From Gammaproteobacteria bacterium (GTDB lineage: Bacteria; Pseudomonadota; Gammaproteobacteria; SZUA-140): a stretch of DNA of 64,000 bases. A program made the position numbers and the translations under genes. Shown one piece after another: positions 1,568 to 14,014 of this stretch (its first letter is position 1; every line of letters begins with the position of its first letter). The stretch lies in NCBI GenBank assembly GCA_046754065.1, contig JBHHVB010000006.1, positions 11,080 through 75,079 of the forward strand, read 5' to 3'. The notes under the pieces were generated by a model that was not told the DNA's origin, searched no databases, and worked only from the letters and a program-made list of their open reading frames with translations.

Positions 1568-2638
1568 CTACCTTGTATTTTCTTTCCCTGCCGCAACATC
1601 TTTTGCACAACGAAACCCATAAAAATCTGAAGCGTAGTGCGGGAAAGAAAAATTACGATGATAAGACGAAGTAGAGAATGGGTCGCTTTTCCACGACCCC
1701 CCCCTTAGAACCTTGTACTCTGCATTCACCTCAATCAGATCTACTACTTTTAGTGCCTTATCTTGTGGATTCGTGACGGCTCCAATTTTACCTTTGAAAA
1801 TATCATCCGATGCGTCACTTCCCTCGTATTTATAAAAGGAATCTTGTGTCCATTCACTCACATTACCAGCCATATCCATCACGCCGTATGGACTTACGCC
1901 AGCAGGAAACATAGTGACATCGGTTGTGGAACCCATATTATAATAGGTATTCAAGCGTTTCGCGTCCATCTTATTTCCCCATGGCCAGCGGCGACCATCA
2001 GTCCCTCGCGCAGCCTTTTCCCATTCAGCCTCAGTGGGTAATCTTCCACCAATTGACTCGCAGTAATTGTTCCCGTCATACCAGGAAACCAACGTAACGG
2101 GATGCAACAGTTCTGATTGGTTAATTTTACCATTTCTCCAACTTGACGGAGGCCGATAGTCATTATTAGCGACAAATTTTGCGTACTGTACATTAGTTAC
2201 AGGGTACTTACTAATCTGATAGGCTGGTAACGTAACGACATGTTCGGGCCTGTTTTGCGGGTCAGCTAAACGATGATTAGTCCCCATCTTAAACTCACCT
2301 TCGGGAATAGTAATCATCGAGTCCAGTTCCTTCCATTGTACAGGTGAAATTAATTCGGACACTTCTGATAAGGCATATTTTTCATGCTCTAGTTTACCTG
2401 CTTCATGTTTTTGGTGTAGAAAAACATCTTCACCGGCAGCCCGAATATGCAGGTCCATTTCAGCGAGATCGTAAGTTGCCTTGCTTTTCATAGTTGCCAT
2501 TCCCTTATCCAGCATTCCTATGAGATGAATAGCAATGCCTAGAGCCAGGAATGCAACACAGGTAATAATCGTTGCGGCAAAGTATCGCTTACGTTTACTT
2601 CTATCCTCATCACTAATTGTAACTTCAGTTTTTAGCAT
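1568..2638 (-). CDS. Membrane-anchored FGE-sulfatase (SUMF1/NirV/EgtB-like) domain protein
   Basis: N-terminal TM helix (FAATIITCVAFLALGIAIHLIG) followed by hallmark FGE-sulfatase motifs: PEGEFKMGT, VTLPAYQISKYPVTNVQY, RLPTEAEWEKAARG, RGGSW and YGFRCA. The Cys pair used by true formylglycine-generating enzymes is absent between RGGSW and GFRCA. Confidence 0.8.
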   Translation of the reverse strand: MLKTEVTISDEDRSKRKRYFAATIITCVAFLALGIAIHLIGMLDKGMATMKSKATYDLAEMDLHIRAAGEDVFLHQKHEAGKLEHEKYALSEVSELISPVQWKELDSMITIPEGEFKMGTNHRLADPQNRPEHVVTLPAYQISKYPVTNVQYAKFVANNDYRPPSSWRNGKINQSELLHPVTLVSWYDGNNYCESIGGRLPTEAEWEKAARGTDGRRWPWGNKMDAKRLNTYYNMGSTTDVTMFPAGVSPYGVMDMAGNVSEWTQDSFYKYEGSDASDDIFKGKIGAVTNPQDKALKVVDLIEVNAEYKVLRGGSWKSDPFSTSSYHRNFSFPHYASDFYGFRCAKDVAAGKENTR

Positions 2639-2646
2639 CTGGAAAA

Positions 2647-3207
2647 TTACGGCTTGTTGTCTTTTAATTCCGGTGCCGTATTCTTTCCTTCCTTGCTCGC
2701 AAGAAGTTCGGCCTTTTCCGCTTGCGTAATATAGTTCGGCTTTTTATTTGGGCGCCCGTATATTTTCTTGATCATAACCTCACCCAGGAAGCCTCCAACC
2801 CAGGCTACTTCTACTGTAATAATCACCGGAAGAATCCAGTACAAAAACGGTAATGTTTCACCTTCGCCCGGGGGGGTAATAAATGTCAGGCTATAATAGC
2901 AGTAGCCACGAACAAGGACTGGTGCGAATCCGCTTAGTATTTTTCCACCGAGACCGTAGATCGATGTAACTACAAACCCGCCAATTAATGGAACGATGAA
3001 CATATCTACCATCAACATTGGCGTAAAATAACTCAGCAAATAGCCGGGTACTTTTATAACTTCAAGCTGGACACCTACCAGTGTATCACCAACGTAGATT
3101 ACAACCGCACCAGCCAATACTGAGACTGATACAAAAAAAATCTCTTTATATAAATTATTCACCTGTCGACTCGTCATCCGGATAGGCCTTTCCGGTAAGT
3201 TTTTCAT
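2647..3207 (-). CDS. Hypothetical polytopic membrane protein (186 aa; start may be Met-11 at 3177)
   Basis: ORF with 4-5 hydrophobic helices and a Lys-rich C-terminal tail. It overlaps the upstream cytochrome c gene. No motif recognised. Confidence 0.5.
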   Translation of the reverse strand: MKNLPERPIRMTSRQVNNLYKEIFFVSVSVLAGAVVIYVGDTLVGVQLEVIKVPGYLLSYFTPMLMVDMFIVPLIGGFVVTSIYGLGGKILSGFAPVLVRGYCYYSLTFITPPGEGETLPFLYWILPVIITVEVAWVGGFLGEVMIKKIYGRPNKKPNYITQAEKAELLASKEGKNTAPELKDNKP

Positions 3208-3664
3208 ATTCGGCTTTTTTTGTTTCCTCCAGGTACCAGTCTTCTACCTTCAAACTGGCAAGAAACGAGGCTAACGTCTTGCGTTCGTTCTCTGGTAAAT
3301 TGGAGTACGAGGGCATACGGTATTCTTTTTTAAGTCTGGACTGAAGTATAGACTGTGGATTTTTCGCCGAAAAATACGTGTACAACCAGTCCTCAGTTCG
3401 TATTGAACCGATTCCATCAAGAGCCGGGGCTGGTAACCCCCCTCTCATGAGGTCCTTTAGCGTCCAGAGAGAGTGGCATTCCCGGCAATTTTCCCGATTT
3501 ATTAATACTGCACCTTTTTCGCTTAAATCCTTAGAGGCTGTACTATAGTAGGGAATACCGGGATCTTTGTTTTTCTCGATAAAACTGTTTTTGAGATTGA
3601 GTCCGAAAAACAAAAGGACAACCATACCCAAAGTAGAATAAATTACTTTTTCACCTCTTTTCAT
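3155..3664 (-). CDS. Membrane-anchored monohaem c-type cytochrome
   Basis: N-terminal TM helix, a single CRECH haem-c motif and a candidate distal Met (YRMPSY). It is a clear paralogue of 10351..10965 (LDGIGSIRTEDWLYTYF versus LDGLGSRRSRDWIYTFL). Confidence 0.8.
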   Translation of the reverse strand: MKRGEKVIYSTLGMVVLLFFGLNLKNSFIEKNKDPGIPYYSTASKDLSEKGAVLINRENCRECHSLWTLKDLMRGGLPAPALDGIGSIRTEDWLYTYFSAKNPQSILQSRLKKEYRMPSYSNLPENERKTLASFLASLKVEDWYLEETKKAEYEKLTGKAYPDDESTGE

Positions 3665-5144: not shown

Positions 5145-6095
5145 TTATTTGAGGCTTAAAACAAAGTCAATCAACTTCTTAATTTCGGTATCTTTTGCGT
5201 ACTCAGGAACTTCTGGTGGATAGATACGCTTACCTTCTACGTATTCATCGTAGTCCTTGCGCCATTGATCGAAATTAATAGCCTGACCGTTAGCATCTGT
5301 TTGACCCCACAAATAATCAAACCTTGGCATGATAGAATGTGGCTGCACCAAACGCGGATTGAAAAAGTGCATCAACATCCATTCTCTGGAGGAGTTTCTG
5401 GAACCTACATGCATTAAATCAGGCGCTTTTCTATCTGATCCGAATGCTGTAGGTGATTCACCATTAAAATCGCCCAGACGCGGTGGAACACCGAAGTACT
5501 GCCAGTCTTGAGTTTGCTCAGGCAGTAGTGTGTGACACCACCAGCATTGTTCACGAACGAAAATGATTTTACCTGCACCAATTTCGAAGGTATTCGCTTC
5601 ACCTGCGGTAGCTAAAACACCATCAGGTGTCCATCCACGTGTTGCGGTAGCGTTTTCAATGTAAGGAAACTCCTTACCATTGACCGTACCATGACCCACA
5701 ACAAAGACTGCACCTGAAGATTCGCTTGCAGAACCTACCTGGCCTTGTGAAGTTGTTAACTCCGCAGATTCAGTACCAAGAATTCTTGGATGACGTATAC
5801 CATTTGGAAACGGAATTCCCGCCTTGTATACATATGCATCCATCGTATCCATGGCAGCACCAGTTTTAGGGTCCTTATTCAATCTAACGGTCAGAGGTTT
5901 CCCGTCACCGTTGTTGAATGGATCCTCATAACTGAAGCCTGAAATACGGCCGTATGAAAGTTCTTTTGTGATACCAATTTCTGAGGTACCCACCCCTACG
6001 ATAGTCAAGCTCGGCATATACAAGGTAATCATCATCGATCCACCCAGTGCCAGCCCGAACAAGCGTACACCTATTTTATATTCACGAAATGCCAC
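5145..6095 (-). CDS. ccoO: CcoO/FixO-like monohaem cytochrome c subunit with a ~150-aa insertion after the TM anchor
   Basis: N-terminal TM helix. The C-terminal part reads REQCWWCHTLLPEQ...FGSDRKAPDLMHVGSRNSSREWMLMHFFNPRLVQPHSIMPRF, matching the recalled CcoO core (GC-x-x-CHSQ, GS-x-R-x-GPDL, P-x-S-x-MP). It is 316 aa, compared with about 200 aa for typical CcoO. Confidence 0.8.
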   Translation of the reverse strand: MAFREYKIGVRLFGLALGGSMMITLYMPSLTIVGVGTSEIGITKELSYGRISGFSYEDPFNNGDGKPLTVRLNKDPKTGAAMDTMDAYVYKAGIPFPNGIRHPRILGTESAELTTSQGQVGSASESSGAVFVVGHGTVNGKEFPYIENATATRGWTPDGVLATAGEANTFEIGAGKIIFVREQCWWCHTLLPEQTQDWQYFGVPPRLGDFNGESPTAFGSDRKAPDLMHVGSRNSSREWMLMHFFNPRLVQPHSIMPRFDYLWGQTDANGQAINFDQWRKDYDEYVEGKRIYPPEVPEYAKDTEIKKLIDFVLSLK

Positions 6096-6139
6096 TTTTG
6101 TTACCCTCCCTTATCCGGTTAACAATTGGTAGTTATCGA

Positions 6140-7546
6140 TTAACGTTCGTATGCAAGCTCATGTGGCATACGACCAGCAGGTACGATGGTACCTTCTCTA
6201 GCGGTCATCCACATATTGTAGAGCCATACTACATTACCAGTGAACACCATAGTGCCTCCTACCCAGCGAGCAATCATGTACGGGTGTTCTGCGATTACTA
6301 CGTCGATATATGGCACCTCATAAATCTTCGCTGCACCCTGAATCAGACCTGCAATCGTAATTGAGATCCAATAGGTACAGAAACCGATCAATAGGAACCA
6401 GAAGTGGAAGTTAGCTAATGCCAGTGAATACAGCTTACGACGCATAACTGTTTGTAAACCATAATACACGGCAGCACCTTCCAGGAAGGTGGAGAAGCCC
6501 AGTAATGCCAAATGCGCATGAGCAACAATCCAGCCAGTACCATGAATATACCAGTTAATAGCACGAGTCTGTTGAAAACCACCCTGCATATTTAGTGGAA
6601 TAGCTAAAAGCACACCTACCATGGTAAAGCGCACTTCGATATTGTTTACAAAGTAATGCCATTTACCCGTCATTGTTAACAGCAGGTTTGATACGAATGC
6701 AATCGCAGGCACAAGAATCAATACACCTTCAACTGATGCAAATGACTTGGTCCACTCAGGAAGTGGAGATGACATAATATGGTGAGCCGCCGGTGTCGAA
6801 TAGAACACAACAACAGACCAGAAATGAACGTGTCCAATTCTGTGAGAGTATAGCGGGTTACCCGTAATCTTCGGAATTGTGTAGTACGCGATTGCCGCAG
6901 CAACTGGTGTAATCCAGAGACCCAGGATGTTATGCGCGTGCCACCATGTGAGATACGCTTCAGTCAAGCCACTCAACTGAAAGTATTCTGGAAGATTACC
7001 AACCAGTACCACGATACCAACCATGAAACAGCCAGCCCCGAAGAACCAGTTAGTGGTATAGATACCCTGGGTTCTACGATGGATAATGGTCATCCAAACG
7101 TTGATACCTAAAGGCGCTACCATAAAGAATAGAACGAACAGATCAATAAACCATGGAAAGTCTGTGTACTCACGACCGGACGTCATCCCGCACCATAACA
7201 AAGTCAGTGCTAGTGATAAACCGACGTTGAACAGTAAGCAGTTCCAAAGACCCAGCTTCTCTGACCACAACTTGGTGTTACCTAGTGCTGGTGTGATATA
7301 CATCATCGCCATAGCAAATGCCATGGTAATCCAACCAAAGATTACTGCGTGCACATGCACCTGACGCATATGACCAAATGCAAACATTTCCGATCCTGTC
7401 ACAAAGTCCGGAAATGCCAGTTTAGCCGCATTAAAGGATCCGAGACCGGTCCCTATAACAAACCATATAATTGACGAAAACCCCCAATATACCGCTGAAC
7501 TACCTTTTGGTATATCTTCGTTTCTCGCGAAAAGGTACTTAAACAT
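6140..7546 (-). CDS. ccoN: cbb3-type (C-family) haem-copper oxidase catalytic subunit I
   Basis: About 12 TM helices. Motifs seen: RQVHVHAVIFGW (low-spin haem His), SGREYTDFPWFID, WWHAHN (CuB His), VHFW...VVFYSTPAAHH (Tyr five residues before the HH pair, as for the C-family cross-linked Tyr) and VAHAHLALLG (the HxH haem ligands). Confidence 0.9.
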   Translation of the reverse strand: MFKYLFARNEDIPKGSSAVYWGFSSIIWFVIGTGLGSFNAAKLAFPDFVTGSEMFAFGHMRQVHVHAVIFGWITMAFAMAMMYITPALGNTKLWSEKLGLWNCLLFNVGLSLALTLLWCGMTSGREYTDFPWFIDLFVLFFMVAPLGINVWMTIIHRRTQGIYTTNWFFGAGCFMVGIVVLVGNLPEYFQLSGLTEAYLTWWHAHNILGLWITPVAAAIAYYTIPKITGNPLYSHRIGHVHFWSVVVFYSTPAAHHIMSSPLPEWTKSFASVEGVLILVPAIAFVSNLLLTMTGKWHYFVNNIEVRFTMVGVLLAIPLNMQGGFQQTRAINWYIHGTGWIVAHAHLALLGFSTFLEGAAVYYGLQTVMRRKLYSLALANFHFWFLLIGFCTYWISITIAGLIQGAAKIYEVPYIDVVIAEHPYMIARWVGGTMVFTGNVVWLYNMWMTAREGTIVPAGRMPHELAYER

Positions 7547-8551: not shown

Positions 8552-8788
8552 ATGCAAATCTCGATGAATAGCCGATACCCATTTCAGATCAAGGAAATCA
8601 TTATCTATGCGATGGTTGCGTTCGCATCTCTTGTGATACTTGGATATTCGGTACATATGTTGATTGGTGACATTGTCAGCCCCTCGACTGAAAAATTAGC
8701 TATCATCATCGCCTGCGTTGCTGGAGCCGCTGTCATCGCGTTTATGGCGTGGGACGTTGTAAAACAAAGAAAAAACAGAATGGGATAG
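8552..8788 (+). CDS. Hypothetical two-TM membrane protein (78 aa)
   Basis: ORF with two hydrophobic helices and a basic C-terminus. It is the only plus-strand gene between the two cytochrome clusters. Confidence 0.4.
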   Translation: MQISMNSRYPFQIKEIIIYAMVAFASLVILGYSVHMLIGDIVSPSTEKLAIIIACVAGAAVIAFMAWDVVKQRKNRMG

Positions 8789-8892: not shown

Positions 8893-9345
8893 CTATTTAT
8901 AGATATTAAGCCTCGAGCATAGGTCCTTGTAATCGGCCTTACTGACAAACTGACCACGATGGAAAACGAACTGGCGCTTTTTACCCGTAATATCCATACC
9001 AGTCAAACCAAAAGATTTTCCCGCATAATCGGGATGAAAACGCAAATCTTTCGCTAAATCGACTTTATCGCCACCGTTTAGGTTTAACGCAACATTTTGC
9101 CTTGATACCTCCAGACTTTTAGGTGAAGAAGGTAACACCAGTAATCTGGTCAAAATGCGGTTCATACCAATGAAAAATATAAAACTTGCCAGAAAGAACA
9201 ACACGTAAGCAAGGGTTTGCCCACCGCTATACCATTGCTTGAAACAGAATGACAATAGCAGTAATACTGTTGGCACATAAAGCACCAAATCCCACAAAAT
9301 GCCTTTTTTATCTTTTACGAGTTGATAACTTGAGACTTCACCCAT
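8893..9345 (-). CDS. Hypothetical membrane protein (two TM helices plus a ~80-aa soluble C-terminal domain)
   Basis: ORF starting 3 nt after the stop of the thioredoxin-like gene. It is the last gene of a tightly coupled four-gene unit. Confidence 0.5.
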   Translation of the reverse strand: MGEVSSYQLVKDKKGILWDLVLYVPTVLLLLSFCFKQWYSGGQTLAYVLFFLASFIFFIGMNRILTRLLVLPSSPKSLEVSRQNVALNLNGGDKVDLAKDLRFHPDYAGKSFGLTGMDITGKKRQFVFHRGQFVSKADYKDLCSRLNIYK

Positions 9346-9348
9346 GAC

Positions 9349-9846
9349 CTAACCCGCAGCTAAAGCATTTTGAATCACTGCATCCAGTTCGCCATATAAC
9401 AAACGCCCAGCCTGCTTGAACTGGACAACATTATTCTCGTCAATCACAAATGTCCAGGGATCACCCTGAATCTGATACGCGATAAAGGCTGCGGTATTCT
9501 GGTACTGATCCATATGTAAAAACAGAATATCTTCGCCATATTTATTGATTAGTGCCTTCAGCATCTGTAATTGCTTATCACAAACCGTACAGTGTCCTGG
9601 TGTAGCAAATTCAAGAACGACAGGCTTTCCAGTGGCTAATGCATCATCCAGCGAATATTGGTACATCCGTTCATCAGGTTGCCTGTATGTGGTAATACGA
9701 CTAAAGTCACCATCAACATCGGCAAGGGTTTTGGTTTTTAGGCTGGGTGCTTTCATCCCGACTCTCAAGCTGCTTCCCTCGGGCTTAAAGTCACAGCCAC
9801 TTAACAACAATGCTGTAAAAACAATTATTAGAAGCGCTAATCTCAT
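9349..9846 (-). CDS. Thioredoxin-fold (TlpA/ResA/Sco-like) lipoprotein with a CxxC motif
   Basis: I prefer the Met at 9844-9846, giving MRLALLIIVFTALLLSGC, a lipoprotein signal with an LSGC lipobox. That start forms an ATGA overlap with the upstream stop. The redox motif reads FATPGHCTVCDKQL. Confidence 0.65.
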   Translation of the reverse strand: MRLALLIIVFTALLLSGCDFKPEGSSLRVGMKAPSLKTKTLADVDGDFSRITTYRQPDERMYQYSLDDALATGKPVVLEFATPGHCTVCDKQLQMLKALINKYGEDILFLHMDQYQNTAAFIAYQIQGDPWTFVIDENNVVQFKQAGRLLYGELDAVIQNALAAG

Positions 9847-10376
9847 ATTTGTTTTTCCCACCCCATACATGTTCTGAATATATTATACCCCCAAATGCAG
9901 TTGGCCAATAATACCATTGAACCAAACATACCCATCATAGCCAGAATAGGGCGAATTATAGCTTCAACCTGTTCAGGTGATGAATGAACACTGGCATTCC
10001 CACCCAACACACCAGCAGTGGTAAACAAAACCACCATACCAATGAGCCCAAAATTATGAATCCAGAAGTGGGCTATAACCAACTTAAGACTAAATATAGG
10101 CCGTTTTACCAATCTGGGAATGATAAAATAGATCGCGCCAAAGATAGCCATTTCCACCCAACCCAGCAGATTTATATGGGTATGCGCCCGAACAATTAAA
10201 TTACCATGCATCCTGTGGTCAACAAAGTGACGAAATTCAGCGATACCGCCCATCATCGCTCCCCAGGAAAAGCCAATAATGCTATATATTACACATGCAT
10301 AGATAAACCACAGCGTGTATCTAGTATAAACTTTGTCCTGCACCCAGGGCTCATTCATTTCGCTGTTGTCCCTCAC
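9843..10376 (-). CDS. Mini haem-copper-oxidase-like membrane protein, homologous to only the C-terminal helices (about IX-XII) of CcoN
   Basis: An ungapped comparison with the CcoN in this window gives about 21 identities over 67 positions. The mini protein segment is LIVRAHTHINLLGWVEMAIFGAIYFIIPRLVKRPIFSLKLVIAHFWIHNFGLIGMVVLFTTAGVLGG. The CcoN segment is GWIVAHAHLALLGFSTFLEGAAVYYGLQTVMRRKLYSLALANFHFWFLLIGFCTYWISITIAGLIQG. The HxH, LLG, FSL/YSL, HFW and AG..GG positions are retained. The CuB ligands and the helix-II His are absent. Confidence 0.75.
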   Translation of the reverse strand: MRDNSEMNEPWVQDKVYTRYTLWFIYACVIYSIIGFSWGAMMGGIAEFRHFVDHRMHGNLIVRAHTHINLLGWVEMAIFGAIYFIIPRLVKRPIFSLKLVIAHFWIHNFGLIGMVVLFTTAGVLGGNASVHSSPEQVEAIIRPILAMMGMFGSMVLLANCIWGYNIFRTCMGWEKQI

Positions 10377-10965
10377 CCATTATTTCATTTTGCTTATCTG
10401 ACGATCTGACATCCTTGTACTTTTCTTTCCACCCTTCAGGTGCCCAGGTTCCAATCATCTCATCAATAAATTCAGACCGGCCCTCTGGCGGTAGCGGTGC
10501 GGTCGATGCCCCTCTTTCGGCTCTTAATCCGGAAAGAAAGGCTGCTATCAGTTGAAGATCCTCATCTGGCATATCGGCCACATAACCCGCTTCTTTTCCT
10601 GATCCATGGTCGAGGGTTACGGTGTTGTGTTCTTCCTCATATGCGGACTCCGGGTCCGTCAAAAAGGTATATATCCAGTCTCGGCTTCTGCGCGAACCCA
10701 ACCCGTCTAAAGACAGCCCCATACTCGTCCCACTTCCCATGGCTCGATGGCACGAGGAACAACGTCCCTTTCTAAAGAGAATTGATCCCTTTTTTCCTTC
10801 CTCTGAAAAATCGTAATGGGTTTTACTGGCAAACATCGGTTTATCTGTAGTAAGGCGTATTGTTTCCATCGCGACGTATGCGATGAAACACACCCCGATA
10901 AACGCAATGATAATACCAAATAATATTTTTTCACCTTGCTTTAGAGGCTGTTTAGCTTTTGCCAT
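10351..10965 (-). CDS. Membrane-anchored monohaem c-type cytochrome (paralogue of 3155..3664)
   Basis: N-terminal TM helix, a single CSSCH motif and a candidate Met ligand (VADMPDE). It shares LDGxGSxRxxDWxYT and FLxxL blocks with the 169-aa cytochrome. Its 3' end overlaps the mini-HCO gene. Confidence 0.8.
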   Translation of the reverse strand: MAKAKQPLKQGEKILFGIIIAFIGVCFIAYVAMETIRLTTDKPMFASKTHYDFSEEGKKGSILFRKGRCSSCHRAMGSGTSMGLSLDGLGSRRSRDWIYTFLTDPESAYEEEHNTVTLDHGSGKEAGYVADMPDEDLQLIAAFLSGLRAERGASTAPLPPEGRSEFIDEMIGTWAPEGWKEKYKDVRSSDKQNEIMGEGQQRNE

Positions 10966-11033: not shown

Positions 11034-11058
11034 AAAGGCGGGCATAATACCCGCCTTT
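11034..11058. terminator. Intrinsic terminator downstream of the dihaem cytochrome gene
   Basis: The stem is AAAGGCGGG pairing with CCCGCCTTT, with a 7-nt loop. On the minus strand the hairpin is followed by TTTGTTTTCTCC. Confidence 0.6.
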
Positions 11059-11080: not shown

Positions 11081-11860
11081 TTAGTGATCTTCGAACTGCC
11101 TGTGTGCCCTTGGACGACCCATTTCGCCTGGACTCTGGGTTCTGGAACCTGTGGAACTCAGGAAAGTCGCAAGGTCCCTGATATCATTATCATCCAAAAG
11201 CTGAGCAACTTTTTGCATGGCTTCATGAGGATCATTGTGTCTTGCACCACTTCTCCAGTTTTTAAGCTGATTGGTGATGTATACATATTTCTGTAAACCA
11301 ATCAACGGGAAGATCGGATCAACACCACGACCATTGTAACCATGACAAGACCGGCAAGCAGGTATCCCTTTGTCGGTATCTCCGTAATTAACAAGCGCTT
11401 TGCCTCGGTACGAAACACCAATTTCTGTACCACCCGCTTCCAGCGCCTTCAAATCAGATGGTTGAAAATCAGCATCCCAGGTGCTAACAAAGGCGGCAAT
11501 GTCGATTCTATCCTGCTCTGACAATCCCAACGCATTGGTATTCATAACAAACATGGTTGTATCCTGGCGCTTACAGGTTGAATGGTCTTCAGGATTTGAA
11601 CAGGTGCCAAAATCAGTTAATTGCTTGACAATGAACTGATAAACCTGACCGACCAGGCGTGGCGTTCCTAAAGCATCATTACCTTCGCCATGCTCGCCAT
11701 GGCATGAAGTACAGGCCGGTACATCGCCCTTACCATTCATGAAAATATTTTTACCGTTGCCAGGATTAGCGTGCGATAAATCAACCGCACTAGCAGAAGT
11801 AGATATTACAAAACCAATAACTATTGCGGTACTCGGTATTAACTTGGCTAGAAGCGACAT
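11081..11860 (-). CDS. Periplasmic dihaem c-type cytochrome (c4-like)
   Basis: Signal peptide (AIVIGFVISTSASA) and two haem motifs, CTSCH and CRSCH, in two repeated class-I-like halves. Confidence 0.85.
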   Translation of the reverse strand: MSLLAKLIPSTAIVIGFVISTSASAVDLSHANPGNGKNIFMNGKGDVPACTSCHGEHGEGNDALGTPRLVGQVYQFIVKQLTDFGTCSNPEDHSTCKRQDTTMFVMNTNALGLSEQDRIDIAAFVSTWDADFQPSDLKALEAGGTEIGVSYRGKALVNYGDTDKGIPACRSCHGYNGRGVDPIFPLIGLQKYVYITNQLKNWRSGARHNDPHEAMQKVAQLLDDNDIRDLATFLSSTGSRTQSPGEMGRPRAHRQFEDH

Positions 11861-12556: not shown

Positions 12557-14014
12557 ATGACCTTATTAGAAAAATTGTTACCCAAAAACTGGACGCCCCG
12601 CTATTGGACACTGTTCAGCCTTTTATGCTGGGGTGGAGTTATCCTGTCATCAGGCGTTTTGCGTTTTGATGCCTATGGCATTGATGAATCAGCTGCTAAA
12701 GCATTGTTGCTCAGCTGGTCGGTTGCTGACAGGGTAATTAGCCCGGTGGTTATATTTGGTTTACCTGATTTTCGATCAATCCTTTTTTTACCTGTTGGTC
12801 TATATTGGCCGGGTAGCATTCTTGCGGCAAAGGTGTTTACGCTACTCATTATGTTTATCGGTGCAATGTTTTTTTACCGCTGGAACAAAAATAACAGCGG
12901 CGCTGAATCCGCATTAATCGCAACAGGCCTTTTACTTATTTCCCCTCTAACGCTGGCTCAAATCGACGCGATCGGTATAGGGCCCTACCTGATATTCACT
13001 TTTGGTCTGGGTATTTGGCTCGATCAAAAACACCGTACCGCAAATAAGCCTTTGGGTGCCTGGTATTTTATTCAACTTTTACTTATTGTATTTGCTGTCA
13101 GTCTTCATCCGATGGCTCTGGCTTACCCGATTGCACTTGCTATTTACTGGTACAACAATCCGGTGGATGAAAAACAACAGAAACATGCCTTCATAGGCAT
13201 AGGCTTAGCGACCATTTTCGCACTGCTTCTTCATATTGGATGGACACATGTCATCTGGTTTTCAAATCCATTTGGTTTATTCATCAATATAGTTATAGGA
13301 GAGTGGACCACCGATACCTTGCGCATGATGATAGGATCGGTACTTTTAGGCCTTTTGGTTATCACGCTGCTGGCAGATTGGAAAAGCCTGACGTCCAGCC
13401 TGACTGGTTTAATTTTAATGATTTCTTTTATCATCGGGTTAACCTGCGCTGATGAAACCTGGGCATTGCTATCATTTTTGCTACTCGTCTATCTTGGCAC
13501 GCCACGCCTGATACGCGTCAATGCAGCACTGGGCAAAAACGGTTTTGCGGGCCAACGTGGCATTGTCATGGTAGTATTTTCTTTATTGGCGATTTTATTC
13601 ATGCAAGCGGACAAGGCCCAGTACTATGCCAATGCACAAAACCAACTATCACCCCAAGACAGGTTAATCCTGACGCTGGAATCCATGTTTCTGGACATCG
13701 ATGAAGAAACCGAAATTCTGGTCATGAGTGAATGGCCGGCACGGACCATGCTCGCCACAAAGCGGAATGTACTGCCATTGCCTCCTTCTTTTGAGAACAG
13801 CCAGGAGCTAATGGAGAATATTAAGGGAACGACACATGTTATGTTCGATAAATCCAGCGAACAGAATAAGGTATTGGGGACTCAACTGGCCGAACTAAGC
13901 GGCCTGACCAAGACATTATCGCTTCAAGAAGGCGGCGTCATCATGGAGATCAAACGTTCATCCGACGACAAAAACATTCCTATGGGACATGACTCATTAC
14001 AAGGAATTCAATAA
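12557..14014 (+). CDS. Polytopic membrane protein (485 aa), possibly a GT-C-fold (ArnT/PMT-like) glycosyltransferase-like protein
   Basis: More than ten hydrophobic helices, an acidic first loop (FDAYGIDESAAK) and a soluble C-terminal ~110 aa. The functional guess is weak. Confidence 0.6.
   Translation: MTLLEKLLPKNWTPRYWTLFSLLCWGGVILSSGVLRFDAYGIDESAAKALLLSWSVADRVISPVVIFGLPDFRSILFLPVGLYWPGSILAAKVFTLLIMFIGAMFFYRWNKNNSGAESALIATGLLLISPLTLAQIDAIGIGPYLIFTFGLGIWLDQKHRTANKPLGAWYFIQLLLIVFAVSLHPMALAYPIALAIYWYNNPVDEKQQKHAFIGIGLATIFALLLHIGWTHVIWFSNPFGLFINIVIGEWTTDTLRMMIGSVLLGLLVITLLADWKSLTSSLTGLILMISFIIGLTCADETWALLSFLLLVYLGTPRLIRVNAALGKNGFAGQRGIVMVVFSLLAILFMQADKAQYYANAQNQLSPQDRLILTLESMFLDIDEETEILVMSEWPARTMLATKRNVLPLPPSFENSQELMENIKGTTHVMFDKSSEQNKVLGTQLAELSGLTKTLSLQEGGVIMEIKRSSDDKNIPMGHDSLQGIQ

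Follow-up and report, generated by a model that had tools for sequence, protein, structure and literature searches.

The window, the whole 64,000-nucleotide stretch of DNA that was analysed, carries a respiratory cluster of ~10 kb that includes a small gene for a protein of four transmembrane helices with both termini cytoplasmic, hereafter mini-HCO. The features of the locus are as follows.

5145..7546, minus strand: divergent C-family oxidase, CcoN-like and CcoO-like (Pfam COX1, E = 2.1e-72, and FixO)
8552..8788, plus strand: small conserved membrane protein of 78 aa, encoded opposite to the module (ORF)
8893..9345, minus strand: 150-aa protein predicted to have two membrane helices, with a soluble C-terminal part (ORF)
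9349..9846, minus strand: thioredoxin/TlpA-like lipoprotein with lipobox LLSGC and a CTVC active site (Pfam AhpC-TSA and Thioredoxin above threshold)
9843..10358, minus strand: mini-HCO coding sequence (ORF, Pfam COX1, homologue N-termini, gene call)
10056..10154, minus strand: codons of E69 (10152-10154, mid-helix 2), H97 (10068-10070) and H101-N102 (from 10056) (A1 alignment)
10176..10184, minus strand: codons of the HxH motif, H59-T60-H61, near the outer end of helix 2 (sequence read)
10351..10965, minus strand: membrane-anchored monohaem cytochrome c, 204 aa, CSSCH (Pfam Cytochrom_C, E = 4.9e-07)
11034..11058, minus strand: terminator-like hairpin (11-bp stem, then a T-run) separating the Cyc1 gene from the module (consensus scan)
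11081..11860, minus strand: dihaem c4-type cytochrome with a signal peptide (two Cytochrom_C stretches)

The open reading frame at 9843..10376 (minus strand) is confirmed in the sequence and is bounded by intact neighbouring genes, but the 177-aa product originally assigned to it, which begins with a GTG at 10376, is probably too long. The true start is most likely the ATG at 10358-10356, giving 171 aa, because homologues begin with MNEPW or MSEPW and gene callers also return 171 aa. This ATG lies 2 nt ahead of the TGA stop codon of the cytochrome c gene (10353-10351), an 8-nt overlap that reads ATGAATGA, and the TGA stop of mini-HCO (9845-9843) shares an ATGA with the start codon of the CxxC lipoprotein (9846-9844).

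Mini-HCO is part of a fixed module of four genes, encoding the membrane cytochrome c, mini-HCO itself, the thioredoxin lipoprotein and the 150-aa membrane protein, that recurs in 80 genomes of Zetaproteobacteria and Tenderia-like Gammaproteobacteria, including Ca. Tenderia metagenome-assembled genomes (MAGs) and Mariprofundus ferrooxydans PV-1. The cluster as a whole belongs to iron-oxidising and electrode-oxidising Proteobacteria. The cytochrome c gene stands beside mini-HCO in 79 of the 80 genomes, the thioredoxin gene in 78 and the gene for the 150-aa protein in 75; both the overlaps and the retention of these neighbours therefore bear out the original prediction that mini-HCO is coupled to a membrane cytochrome c upstream and to a thioredoxin-like lipoprotein downstream. 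The cytochrome c has no significant similarity to NorC (E = 0.89) or CcoO, and a sequence search found no solved relative of the thioredoxin. The 150-aa protein, encoded by the last gene of the module after a 3-nt gap from the thioredoxin gene, has no family match in Pfam or NCBIfam.

The dihaem cytochrome upstream corresponds by position to Cyc1 of Ca. Tenderia electrophaga; its gene is found in 62 of the 80 genomes and is absent upstream of the Zetaproteobacteria loci. On the other side, the gene for the 78-aa protein, with an opposite-strand tblastn match in 64 of the 80 genomes, stands between the module and the CcoN/CcoO operon, which adjoins the module in 56 of the 80. The CcoN-like protein (6140-7546, 468 aa) retains all six metal-ligand histidines and the cross-link Tyr, which are invariant in 52 orthologues, and scores 220 on TIGR00780 against a cut-off of 583. 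A third haem site in this protein was considered, as HxH is present in all three of its repeats, and was dropped when H66 and H203 proved to be conserved in only 7 and 5 of the 52 orthologues. The CcoO-like protein (5145-6095) has a 170-aa N-terminal extension. No CcoP is encoded in the window cluster, and genes of maturation type comprise the thioredoxin, a CcoS-like protein and a protein of the FGE-sulfatase family (FGE/NirV-like). Gene order is rearranged at one locus (L060), and at another (L070), in a Mariprofundaceae genome, the module stands alone and is followed by ppk1, with no CcoN/CcoO within 6 kb. Apart from the CcoN C-terminus, neither the window nor the other loci hold a second paralogue of mini-HCO.

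The original prediction suggested that the protein may be a novel module, but the gene had been listed in 2017 and 2022: the Ca. Tenderia electrophaga orthologue ALP51724.1 (Tel_00415) is named 'truncated CcoN' or 'Complex IV (1)' (Eddie et al. 2017, mSystems, PMC5371394; Eddie et al. 2022, bioRxiv, 10.1101/2022.05.06.490989). The assignment of orthology rests on synteny and on loci from Ca. Tenderia-labelled MAGs (L022, L036, L044), in which the orthologues are 74-77% identical and occur in the same order. The Tenderia 'Complex IV (1)' locus (Fig. 2B and Table S1 of Eddie et al.) runs from dihaem Cyc1 through the monohaem cytochrome, truncated CcoN (525 nt), thioredoxin and small genes to CcoN, CcoO and more, which is the order of the window. 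The window mini-HCO likewise falls within ~170-175 aa and lies between monohaem cytochrome c and thioredoxin genes, with Cyc1 upstream and CcoN/CcoO downstream. In Tenderia, Cyc1 (Tel_00405) is directly upstream and highly expressed (logCPM 12.4, compared with 8.7 for the mini-HCO orthologue and 13.7 for CcoN), and mRNA drops ~10-fold from Cyc1 to the next genes (Eddie et al.), a decrease that the candidate terminator at 11034..11058 would fit. The orthologue shows no significant response to electrode potential (logFC -0.27, FDR 0.56; Eddie et al.). The region has been suggested to form 'a sort of alternative complex IV' (Eddie et al. 2022, 10.1101/2022.05.06.490989), and a second 'truncated CcoN' is reported in Tenderia at a locus beyond this window. 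Both papers list and name the gene, and contain no analysis of its repeats, ligands, oligomeric state or wider family. Our literature search found the gene mentioned only in these two papers and nothing on single-repeat oxidase homologues or triplication at the sequence level; it goes unmentioned in the Mariprofundus PV-1 genome paper, the freshwater iron-oxidiser paper and the 2024 paper on NOR diversity.

Mini-HCO is a functional gene under strong purifying selection. A search returned 775 homologues, with hundreds of the same length at 71-82% identity; the best 120 are 168-185 aa long and 72-82% identical. pN is 0.15 compared with a saturated pS of 0.81. Median identity across the 80 genomes is 74.7% for mini-HCO, 82.5% for CcoN and 36-65% for every other gene of the cluster (59% for the CcoS-like protein, 64% for the thioredoxin and 55% for FGE, the putative maturation proteins), making mini-HCO the second most conserved protein of the cluster.

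The relationship to oxidases is clear at the level of both sequence and fold. Mini-HCO matches Pfam COX1 (PF00115) with E = 1.8e-14 and 53.9 bits (threshold 34.8 bits) over only profile positions 306-427 of 436, and scores 47.6 bits on the NCBIfam ccoN equivalog TIGR00780, below the cut-off of 583.15. BLASTP against the window CcoN gives 29% identity over 132 aa (E = 9e-15), covering CcoN residues 320-449; this best-matching stretch corresponds to helices IX-XII. Homology to the C-terminal part of CcoN thus stands as first described, although the alignment contains two small gaps and is not gap-free; the motifs HG-x6-AH-x-H-x2-LLG, [FY]SL and HFW are confirmed, while the reported 'AG..GG' is AG..G in CcoN. 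Mini-HCO also aligns with CcoN helices I-III (E = 2e-5) and VI-VII (E = 7e-5). The match to the last four helices is therefore real but not exclusive, and the protein represents the oxidase repeat in general. When single-repeat proteins are made into a profile, it similarly matches all three repeats of the window CcoN (E = 8.7e-13, 1.7e-9 and 3e-21).

The AF2 monomer (pLDDT 95.5) consists of four long helices. A fold search of the PDB with this model retrieves oxidase subunit I chains only, and the superposition on cbb3 CcoN yields TMq of 0.79-0.82 with an rmsd of 2.5 Å. No solved structure of a stand-alone homologue was found; both sequence and fold lead to full-length oxidases only. At 171 aa and four helices, mini-HCO falls short of the twelve-helix core, in which three four-helix repeats lie in one chain.

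The H59-T60-H61 motif of mini-HCO aligns with H343-A-H345 of the window CcoN. In full oxidases, the HxH of helix X ligates the high-spin and low-spin haems. Retention of the pair, as originally noted, extends well beyond this protein: all 91 diverse single-repeat homologues keep H61, with H59 conserved to at least 90%. G33, G66, Y77 and P81 are also invariant across these 91 members, the window protein included, and L64, W67, F98 and W99 are at least 90% conserved. The single-repeat signature comprises four helices, H-x-H-x2-L-x-G-W followed by Y-x3-P in helix 2, and F-W at the start of helix 3; the window protein fits it throughout. In the 120 close homologues, residues 53-73 of helix 2 are essentially invariant on all faces. 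The A1 alignment adds E69, H101 and N102 as invariant and H97 as at least 90% conserved, and these polar residues sit towards the cytoplasmic half of the protein. E69 and H101 are specific to the subfamily, being absent from more distant single-repeat proteins, whereas N102 is widely conserved in the latter and invariant in the triple-repeat family.

Neither the CuB histidines nor the cross-link Tyr nor the helix II haem ligand is present in mini-HCO: the corresponding helices are absent, and helix 3 contains neither HH nor Tyr-x5-HH near its outer end. Judged from these residues, mini-HCO cannot reduce O2 by the oxidase mechanism, in agreement with the earlier view that it lacks these ligands and is not a conventional oxidase. 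The monomer provides no partner histidine on the outer face of the membrane, and no other conserved histidine is found at the depth of the HxH, either in the monomer or in the membrane helices of the neighbouring proteins.

Sequence comparison shows that mini-HCO is a free-standing single copy of the four-helix repeat present three times in haem-copper oxidase subunit I. It shares 34-41% identity with other single-repeat proteins and with the repeats of non-oxidase triples, compared with 19-29% for the CcoN repeats, and is thus closer to a wide single-repeat family than to any repeat of CcoN. Proteins with exactly three tandem copies occur in several lineages and seem to have arisen several times, as judged from a rough neighbour-joining tree of the repeats over ~100 columns. 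Because their internal repeats are 35-49% identical, compared with 15-23% in CcoN, the sequences point to several, younger triplications. P0132 and 23 relatives make up one such family, in which each of the three HxH motifs keeps both histidines, six in total. Chains of 281 aa with two repeats exist as well, one with an incomplete HxH, so a rule of 'always three' is not strict; a single repeat fused to a DUF1858 domain also occurs. The genes of the distant single- and triple-repeat relatives stand by themselves, without a cytochrome c gene beside them, and their genomic context offers no functional clue. Among them, those in Dehalococcoidales and Nitrospirae MAGs have no oxidase gene nearby, and one distant Nitrospirae relative adjoins a Crp/FNR-type regulator. 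The partnership with cytochrome c is thus specific to the subfamily of mini-HCO, and for the family as a whole, taking electrons from cytochrome c is not necessarily the core function.

Three window copies joined head to tail were modeled with a pLDDT of 84.6 and a pTM of 0.85, and the model superimposes on the whole of cbb3 CcoN (TMq 0.70, TMt 0.76), although the covalent fusion was forced and natural triple-repeat proteins served as the alignment rows, so these values indicate compatibility with a trimer and not assembly. Together with the triple-repeat relatives, the model makes a trimer likelier than the dimeric state originally put forward. In the arrangement that we favor, with about even confidence, mini-HCO would form a homotrimer with bis-His haems between adjacent HxH helices, fed with electrons by the co-translated cytochrome c downstream of Cyc1. 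With three copies closed into a ring, the 12-helix scaffold of oxidases would be re-created. The HxH histidines are predicted to face opposite sides of their helix, so they would not be ligands of one and the same cofactor. Because of this geometry, and since no other conserved histidine lies at that depth, each haem b would sit between two copies, with H59 from one and H61 from its neighbour as ligands. The low-spin haem of oxidases takes its ligands from helix II and helix X, and the site between copies would parallel that arrangement. The ring could accommodate up to three six-coordinate haems and would have no copper site. The cytochrome c would deliver electrons to it as the counterpart of CcoO for CcoN, or of NorC for NorB, and the proposed role of the complex ('Complex IV (1)') is to relay electrons at the membrane after the periplasmic shuttle Cyc1, with no oxygen reduction. 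The thioredoxin may keep the CxxCH cysteines of the cluster cytochromes reduced during maturation. We note that the conserved E69, H97 and H101 lie outside what the trimer model explains.

More tentatively, mini-HCO may be a living single-protomer relative of the building block of oxidase subunit I, a C3 homotrimer with three equivalent bis-His haems of which the oxidase site would be an asymmetric descendant. One histidine pair would still bind the low-spin haem, the second would have opened to the haem-copper site and the third would have been lost, and the independently triplicated relatives would represent natural replays of the triplication.

The best alternative to an electron-transfer ring, which we nonetheless consider rather unlikely, is that mini-HCO assists assembly of the C-family oxidase encoded nearby, as a helix-X look-alike that would transiently hold haem b or template CcoN folding ahead of cofactor insertion. 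Its partners in this task would be three proteins of the cluster: the thioredoxin, the CcoS-like and the FGE/NirV-like protein. The CcoN/CcoO and maturation-type genes do lie alongside in the 56 genomes noted above, and the Tenderia mRNA is ~30-fold below that of CcoN. However, conservation of mini-HCO approaches that of the catalytic subunit and is well above that of the three putative maturation proteins, and its gene is translationally coupled to that of a cytochrome c, an electron-transfer partner. The module also occurs without CcoN/CcoO within 6 kb, and the lone relatives in Dehalococcoidales and Nitrospirae MAGs have no oxidase to assemble in their vicinity.

It is less probable still that mini-HCO is a stoichiometric extra subunit of the CcoN/CcoO oxidase, in which a docked four-helix bundle and its cytochrome c would replace the missing CcoP as the point of electron entry. 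The lack of CcoP, the conserved synteny with CcoN/CcoO, a degree of conservation comparable to CcoN and the treatment of the whole region as one membrane complex by Eddie et al. (2022) are all consistent with such a role. Against it stand the conserved opposite-strand gene between the two operons, the ~30-fold difference in mRNA, and the L060 and L070 loci. Furthermore, a single docked copy would leave both HxH histidines without a partner ligand.

A redox- or gas-sensing membrane module, or a five-coordinate haem protein reacting with a small molecule such as NO or O2, is very unlikely. Without oligomerisation each histidine would indeed give a five-coordinate haem resembling haem b3, and both the regulator beside the Nitrospirae relative and the DUF1858 fusions could be read in this way. 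Yet no signalling output domain or regulator is found in or beside the module in the 80 genomes, the tight coupling is to cytochrome c and thioredoxin, and the change in Tenderia expression with electrode potential is not significant; the sensing role originally proposed thus finds no support. Finally, a recent, non-functional truncation of ccoN can be dismissed with near certainty, even though the CcoN C-terminal third is the best single match of mini-HCO and its homologues carry the database name 'cbb3-type cytochrome c oxidase subunit I', for there are hundreds of homologues of the same length, nonsynonymous sites are constrained while synonymous ones are saturated, the DNA upstream is an intact cytochrome c gene with no degraded ccoN N-terminal remnants (the check that the original prediction had itself set out), no CcoN repeat is as close to the protein as other single-repeat proteins are, and the orthologue is transcribed in Tenderia.

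What is new here is the match of mini-HCO, seen in sequence alignments, to oxidase repeats 1 and 2 as well, along with its affinity to a single-repeat family, the apparent repeated triplication among its relatives, and a confident three-copy model on cbb3 CcoN. Haem-copper oxidases, which account for the bulk of oxygen reduction in biology, have a core of 12 helices with pseudo-threefold symmetry. A conserved, free-standing single repeat allows a direct test of the hypothesis that this core arose by triplication, as do relatives in which three repeats seem to have been joined in one chain more than once. In neutrophilic iron oxidisers and bacteria that oxidise electrodes, mini-HCO also comes immediately after Cyc1 along the proposed route of electrons, whose membrane end is poorly defined. 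If it does form a haem b/c electron-transfer complex, models that link Cyc1 straight to the cbb3 oxidase miss a component. In addition, hundreds of such proteins are named 'cbb3-type cytochrome c oxidase subunit I' in databases, which can mislead inference of aerobic respiration; some are from MAGs labelled Dehalococcoidales, a group generally regarded as anaerobic.

The known systems compared include the DUF2871 (PF11070) small membrane proteins. Matches are obtained for 30 of the 91 single-repeat proteins (best E = 3.6e-5), all below the Pfam threshold, and the window protein gives a weak match over the whole domain (E = 0.03, 15 bits, threshold 27.4); the relation adds no mechanism. The triple-repeat proteins of ~410 aa (P0132 family; P0138, P0142 and P0145 types), themselves annotated 'cbb3-type cytochrome c oxidase subunit I', are another such system. 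Each repeat of P0132 carries an HxH and is 34-38% identical to mini-HCO, and the fused mini-trimer aligns with triple-repeat proteins over its full length. Unlike mini-HCO, these proteins are covalent three-repeat chains without E69 and H101, and their genes stand alone in Deltaproteobacteria-type MAGs with no cytochrome c or thioredoxin neighbour.

The NorC/NorB pair of cNOR resembles the module in that a gene for a membrane-anchored monohaem cytochrome c precedes one for a membrane protein of the oxidase superfamily, and NorB is among the structural matches of the mini-HCO models. The module differs in having no FeB/CuB site, a cytochrome c without significant similarity to NorC and four helices rather than 12. 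The same difference in helix number separates mini-HCO from cbb3 CcoN (PDB 3mk7, 8smr, 9g6b), as does its lack of any CuB histidine, cross-link Tyr or helix II ligand. Even so, helices IX-XII of CcoN share the four-helix fold of mini-HCO. In both proteins the HxH occupies the site of the haem b3/haem b ligands on the second helix, with an HG motif before it and YS..L..HFW after it, and each is paired with a gene for a membrane-anchored monohaem cytochrome c.

The open reading frame originally predicted at 9843-10376(-) is present, and the mini-HCO, a four-helix haem-copper-oxidase-like protein, most likely starts at the ATG at 10358, since its homologues begin with MNEPW or MSEPW and gene callers give a 171-aa product on the same contig. 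As claimed in the original prediction, the gene overlaps both of its neighbors, consistent with translational coupling. Its ATG lies 2 nt ahead of the TGA (10353-10351) of the upstream cytochrome c gene, producing an 8-nt overlap, and is preceded by GAGG about 10 nt upstream; its stop codon (9845-9843) forms an ATGA with the lipoprotein start (9846-9844). The lipoprotein gene is separated by 3 nt from the next gene, which encodes a 150-aa membrane protein.

Pfam COX1 matches the mini-HCO with 53.9 bits (threshold 34.8) over profile positions 306-427 of 436. The protein is 29% identical to residues 320-449 of the window CcoN over 132 aa (E 9e-15), and the shared motifs listed in the original prediction are found. 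Four helices with both termini cytoplasmic are predicted from the positive-inside rule and the AF2 monomer (pLDDT 95.5). A PDB fold search with this model yields oxidase subunit I chains only, the best being cbb3 CcoN (TMq 0.79-0.82, rmsd 2.5 Å); the next non-oxidase match has an E above 0.7. A search of 5.8 billion proteins finds 775 homologues, the best 120 of which are all 168-185 aa long with 72-82% identity. Scanning one genome per species gives 393 relatives; the best 80 belong to Zetaproteobacteria, including Mariprofundus ferrooxydans PV-1, and to Gammaproteobacteria MAGs, including Ca. Tenderia and bins labelled Chromatiales or Ectothiorhodospiraceae. Relative to the window copy, non-synonymous differences amount to 0.15 per site and synonymous differences to a saturated 0.81. 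These values, together with the many homologues of the same length, rule out a pseudogene, the reading that would have undone the original prediction. Among the 120 close homologues, no face of helix 2 varies over residues 53-73, a pattern to be expected if the helix is buried between cofactors and other chains.

When the window genes are run by tblastn on the best 80 loci, synteny is near-universal, and most absences reflect contig ends.

Conserved gene order at the 80 mini-HCO loci
First, 11081-11860(-): dihaem cytochrome c (Cyc1-like); 62/80 loci, absent in Zetaproteobacteria loci
Second: membrane monohaem cytochrome c; 79/80 loci
Third, 9843-10358(-): mini-HCO; 80/80 loci
Fourth: thioredoxin-like lipoprotein; 78/80 loci
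Fifth: 150-aa membrane protein; 75/80 loci
8552-8788(+): small 78-aa membrane protein, two helices, on the opposite strand between module and oxidase operon; 64/80 loci
After the 78-aa protein, before CcoN: 99-aa membrane protein
6140-7546(-): divergent CcoN; 56/80 loci
Within 5145-7546(-): divergent CcoO; 53/80 loci
After CcoO: further small membrane proteins, a CcoS-like protein, a second membrane cytochrome c and an FGE-sulfatase-family protein

CcoN has the highest median identity (82.5%), followed by the mini-HCO (74.7%), and all other cluster proteins range from 36 to 65%; the 78-aa protein (51%) has no family match. A second pair at 2647-3664(-) resembles the cytochrome c/mini-HCO pair. 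It comprises a 169-aa membrane-anchored monohaem cytochrome c, a distant paralogue of the 204-aa protein (25-30% identity), and an overlapping 186-aa multi-helix membrane protein with no family match and no histidines in its helices. Last in the conserved cluster, at 1568-2638(-) and in 43/80 loci, is a membrane-anchored FGE-sulfatase-family protein (FGE, formylglycine-generating enzyme). NirV, encoded beside copper nitrite reductase genes, belongs to the same family, and this kinship would suggest a putative role in copper-site maturation. Eddie et al. label the protein 'serine threonine protein kinase'. Upstream of the Cyc1-like gene and divergent from it, 12557-14014(+) encodes a 485-aa protein that has no Pfam match and is predicted to span the membrane many times; it is conserved in this place in 48/80 loci.

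The mini-HCO was originally equated with only the last four helices of CcoN. The match to helices IX-XII stands, but the protein also aligns to helices I-III (E 2e-5) and VI-VII (E 7e-5); by these alignments it is a generic oxidase repeat more than a CcoN tail. When 1.8 billion cluster representatives are searched exhaustively, the close family forms one tight cluster. Farther relatives include many four-helix proteins of 135-200 aa, and proteins of about 400 aa and 530-670 aa each contain three matches to the query. Single-repeat relatives and three-match proteins alike pass Pfam COX1. A profile from 15 single-repeat proteins detects three repeats in every 12-helix protein tested, with E values of 8.7e-13, 1.7e-9, and 3e-21 for the window CcoN. 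Over about 100 aligned core columns, the mini-HCO is 38-41% identical to other single-repeat proteins and 34-38% to the repeats of P0132, a non-oxidase triple-repeat protein, versus only 26, 19, and 29% to the three repeats of the neighboring CcoN. A rough neighbor-joining tree places it with the single-repeat proteins, outside CcoN repeat 3. On these sequence grounds, the mini-HCO is more aptly placed in an old single-repeat family than regarded as a shortened ccoN.

The HxH pair, whose retention had been pointed out originally, is the hallmark of this family: across 91 diverse members H61 never varies, and H59 is kept in at least 90%. Pfam DUF2871 gives sub-threshold matches to 30/91 proteins of this alignment (best E 3.6e-5) and seems to be one of this family's branches. 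In MAGs labelled Dehalococcoidales and Nitrospirae, and on a contig with a topoisomerase VI gene, distant members occur as lone genes; no cytochrome gene lies beside them at the loci examined. Repeat number varies among proteins of other organisms (P0132, P0138, P0142, P0145/P0156, P0411, and P0419; loci L090, L091), which have one repeat, two (281 aa, one HxH degenerate), one fused to DUF1858, or three (about 400 aa, or 530-670 aa where additional helices follow at the C terminus). Every form carries the annotation 'cbb3-type cytochrome c oxidase subunit I' and is without CuB ligands, and all the examples examined are solitary genes. Natural fusions with exactly three repeats occur in several lineages. 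Their internal repeat identity is 35-49%, versus 15-23% in CcoN, and in P0138 and P0142 each repeat finds its best match within its own protein, which implies separate, more recent triplications.

Residues i and i+2 on a helix face opposite sides, so the two helix X histidines of real oxidases bind two different haems. By alignment mapping, helix II supplies the first His of repeat 1 and helix X the second His of repeat 3 as ligands of the low-spin haem; the high-spin haem is bound by the first repeat 3 His, and CuB by helix VI through the second His in repeat 2. The oxidase ring thus pairs the first His of one repeat with the second of its neighbor. The only other conserved membrane histidines in the mini-HCO, H97 and H101, are placed close to where helix 3 meets the cytoplasm, and none were found in membrane helices of neighboring proteins. 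With no other suitable histidine, a haem bound to H59 or H61 would have to draw its sixth ligand from another mini-HCO copy, and would be held between copies. Three copies are suggested by the three-repeat fusions, the conservation of all six HxH histidines in P0132 and 23 relatives that make up the triple family, the invariance of helix 2, and a fused-trimer model. The latter is an artificial head-to-tail fusion of three window copies (pLDDT 84.6, pTM 0.85), with natural triples, which carry inter-repeat signal, as alignment rows. It matches cbb3 CcoN over its full length (TMq 0.70, TMt 0.76), followed by NorB and then ba3, aa3, bo3, and qNOR subunits. Two-repeat proteins exist alongside three-repeat ones. 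Sequence and model are compatible with a haem-holding trimer, short of proof.

The neighboring CcoN is a complete oxidase, in which neither the six metal-ligand histidines nor the cross-link tyrosine vary among 52 orthologues. The enzyme at 5145-7546(-) is an unusual C-family member: CcoN scores 220 against an equivalog cut-off of 583 with ligands and cross-link Tyr kept, CcoO has a 170-aa N-terminal extension ahead of the haem domain, and neither CcoP nor CcoQ is encoded with it. In the window CcoN (6140-7546, -), each of the three repeats contains an HxH motif (HVH, HAH, HAH). The two extra histidines, H66 and H203, which by pseudo-symmetry would face the normally empty third pore, were rejected as a conserved site because they occur in just 7/52 and 5/52 orthologues.

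The same gene order is drawn for Ca. Tenderia electrophaga by Eddie et al. 2022 (bioRxiv 10.1101/2022.05.06.490989, Fig. 2B): ALP51722 dihaem cytochrome, ALP51723 monohaem cytochrome, ALP51724 'truncated CcoN cytochrome c oxidase', and ALP51725 thioredoxin, then further on ALP51729 CcoN and ALP51730 CcoO, with a second truncated CcoN farther along. The region is, in the authors' suggestion, 'a sort of alternative complex IV'. In Eddie et al. 2017 (PMC5371394), Table S1 lists the dihaem protein as Cyc1 (logCPM 12.4), the monohaem cytochrome and a 525-nt 'CcoN' as 'Complex IV (1)' (9.3 and 8.7), and the full CcoN as 'Complex IV (2)' (13.7); the latter oxidase is among the most highly expressed genes, and canonical ccoNOQP is low. 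The mini-HCO gene had thus been noticed and is transcribed. A strong terminator-like hairpin at 11034-11058(-), separating the module from the Cyc1-like gene (11-bp stem with 6 G-C pairs, and a T-run), fits the roughly 10-fold mRNA drop at this junction in Ca. Tenderia.

We put at about even the chance that the mini-HCO binds haem as a homo-oligomer, most likely a trimer, and transfers electrons together with its cytochrome c. With bis-His haems in a symmetric ring, there would be neither an open coordination site nor copper, which makes oxidase-type oxygen or NO chemistry unlikely. A small haem b/c membrane complex could instead take electrons from a periplasmic shuttle, which fits the stoichiometric coupling to a membrane cytochrome c, the place directly after Cyc1, and the restriction of the subfamily to iron- and electrode-oxidizing lineages. 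Electrons might continue to the oxidase encoded alongside, to a different acceptor, or into a proton-linked step via the subfamily-specific E69, H97, H101, and N102. Were the mini-HCO instead a fixed subunit of the CcoN/CcoO enzyme, its lower mRNA level and its separate operon, with a conserved opposite-strand gene between, would be less readily explained; the module can also stand alone, as in one Mariprofundaceae MAG where polyphosphate kinase is next and CcoN/CcoO are missing within 6 kb. A role in assembly alone would sit less well with so high a conservation. Both rivals are less probable than the electron-transfer reading.

The original observation therefore stands, and its interpretation has partial support: the CcoN-tail reading is widened, and the gene, an orthologue of the 'truncated CcoN' previously listed without analysis, is not itself new. 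In the literature searched, this term was found only in the Eddie et al. papers, and no description of single-repeat oxidase homologues was found. What appears to be new is the single-oxidase-repeat architecture, the wide uncharacterized family, its repeated triplications, and the trimer/haem-ring model. Tentatively, and with the balance somewhat against it, the mini-HCO may be a living relative of the unit whose triplication gave rise to haem-copper oxidase subunit I.
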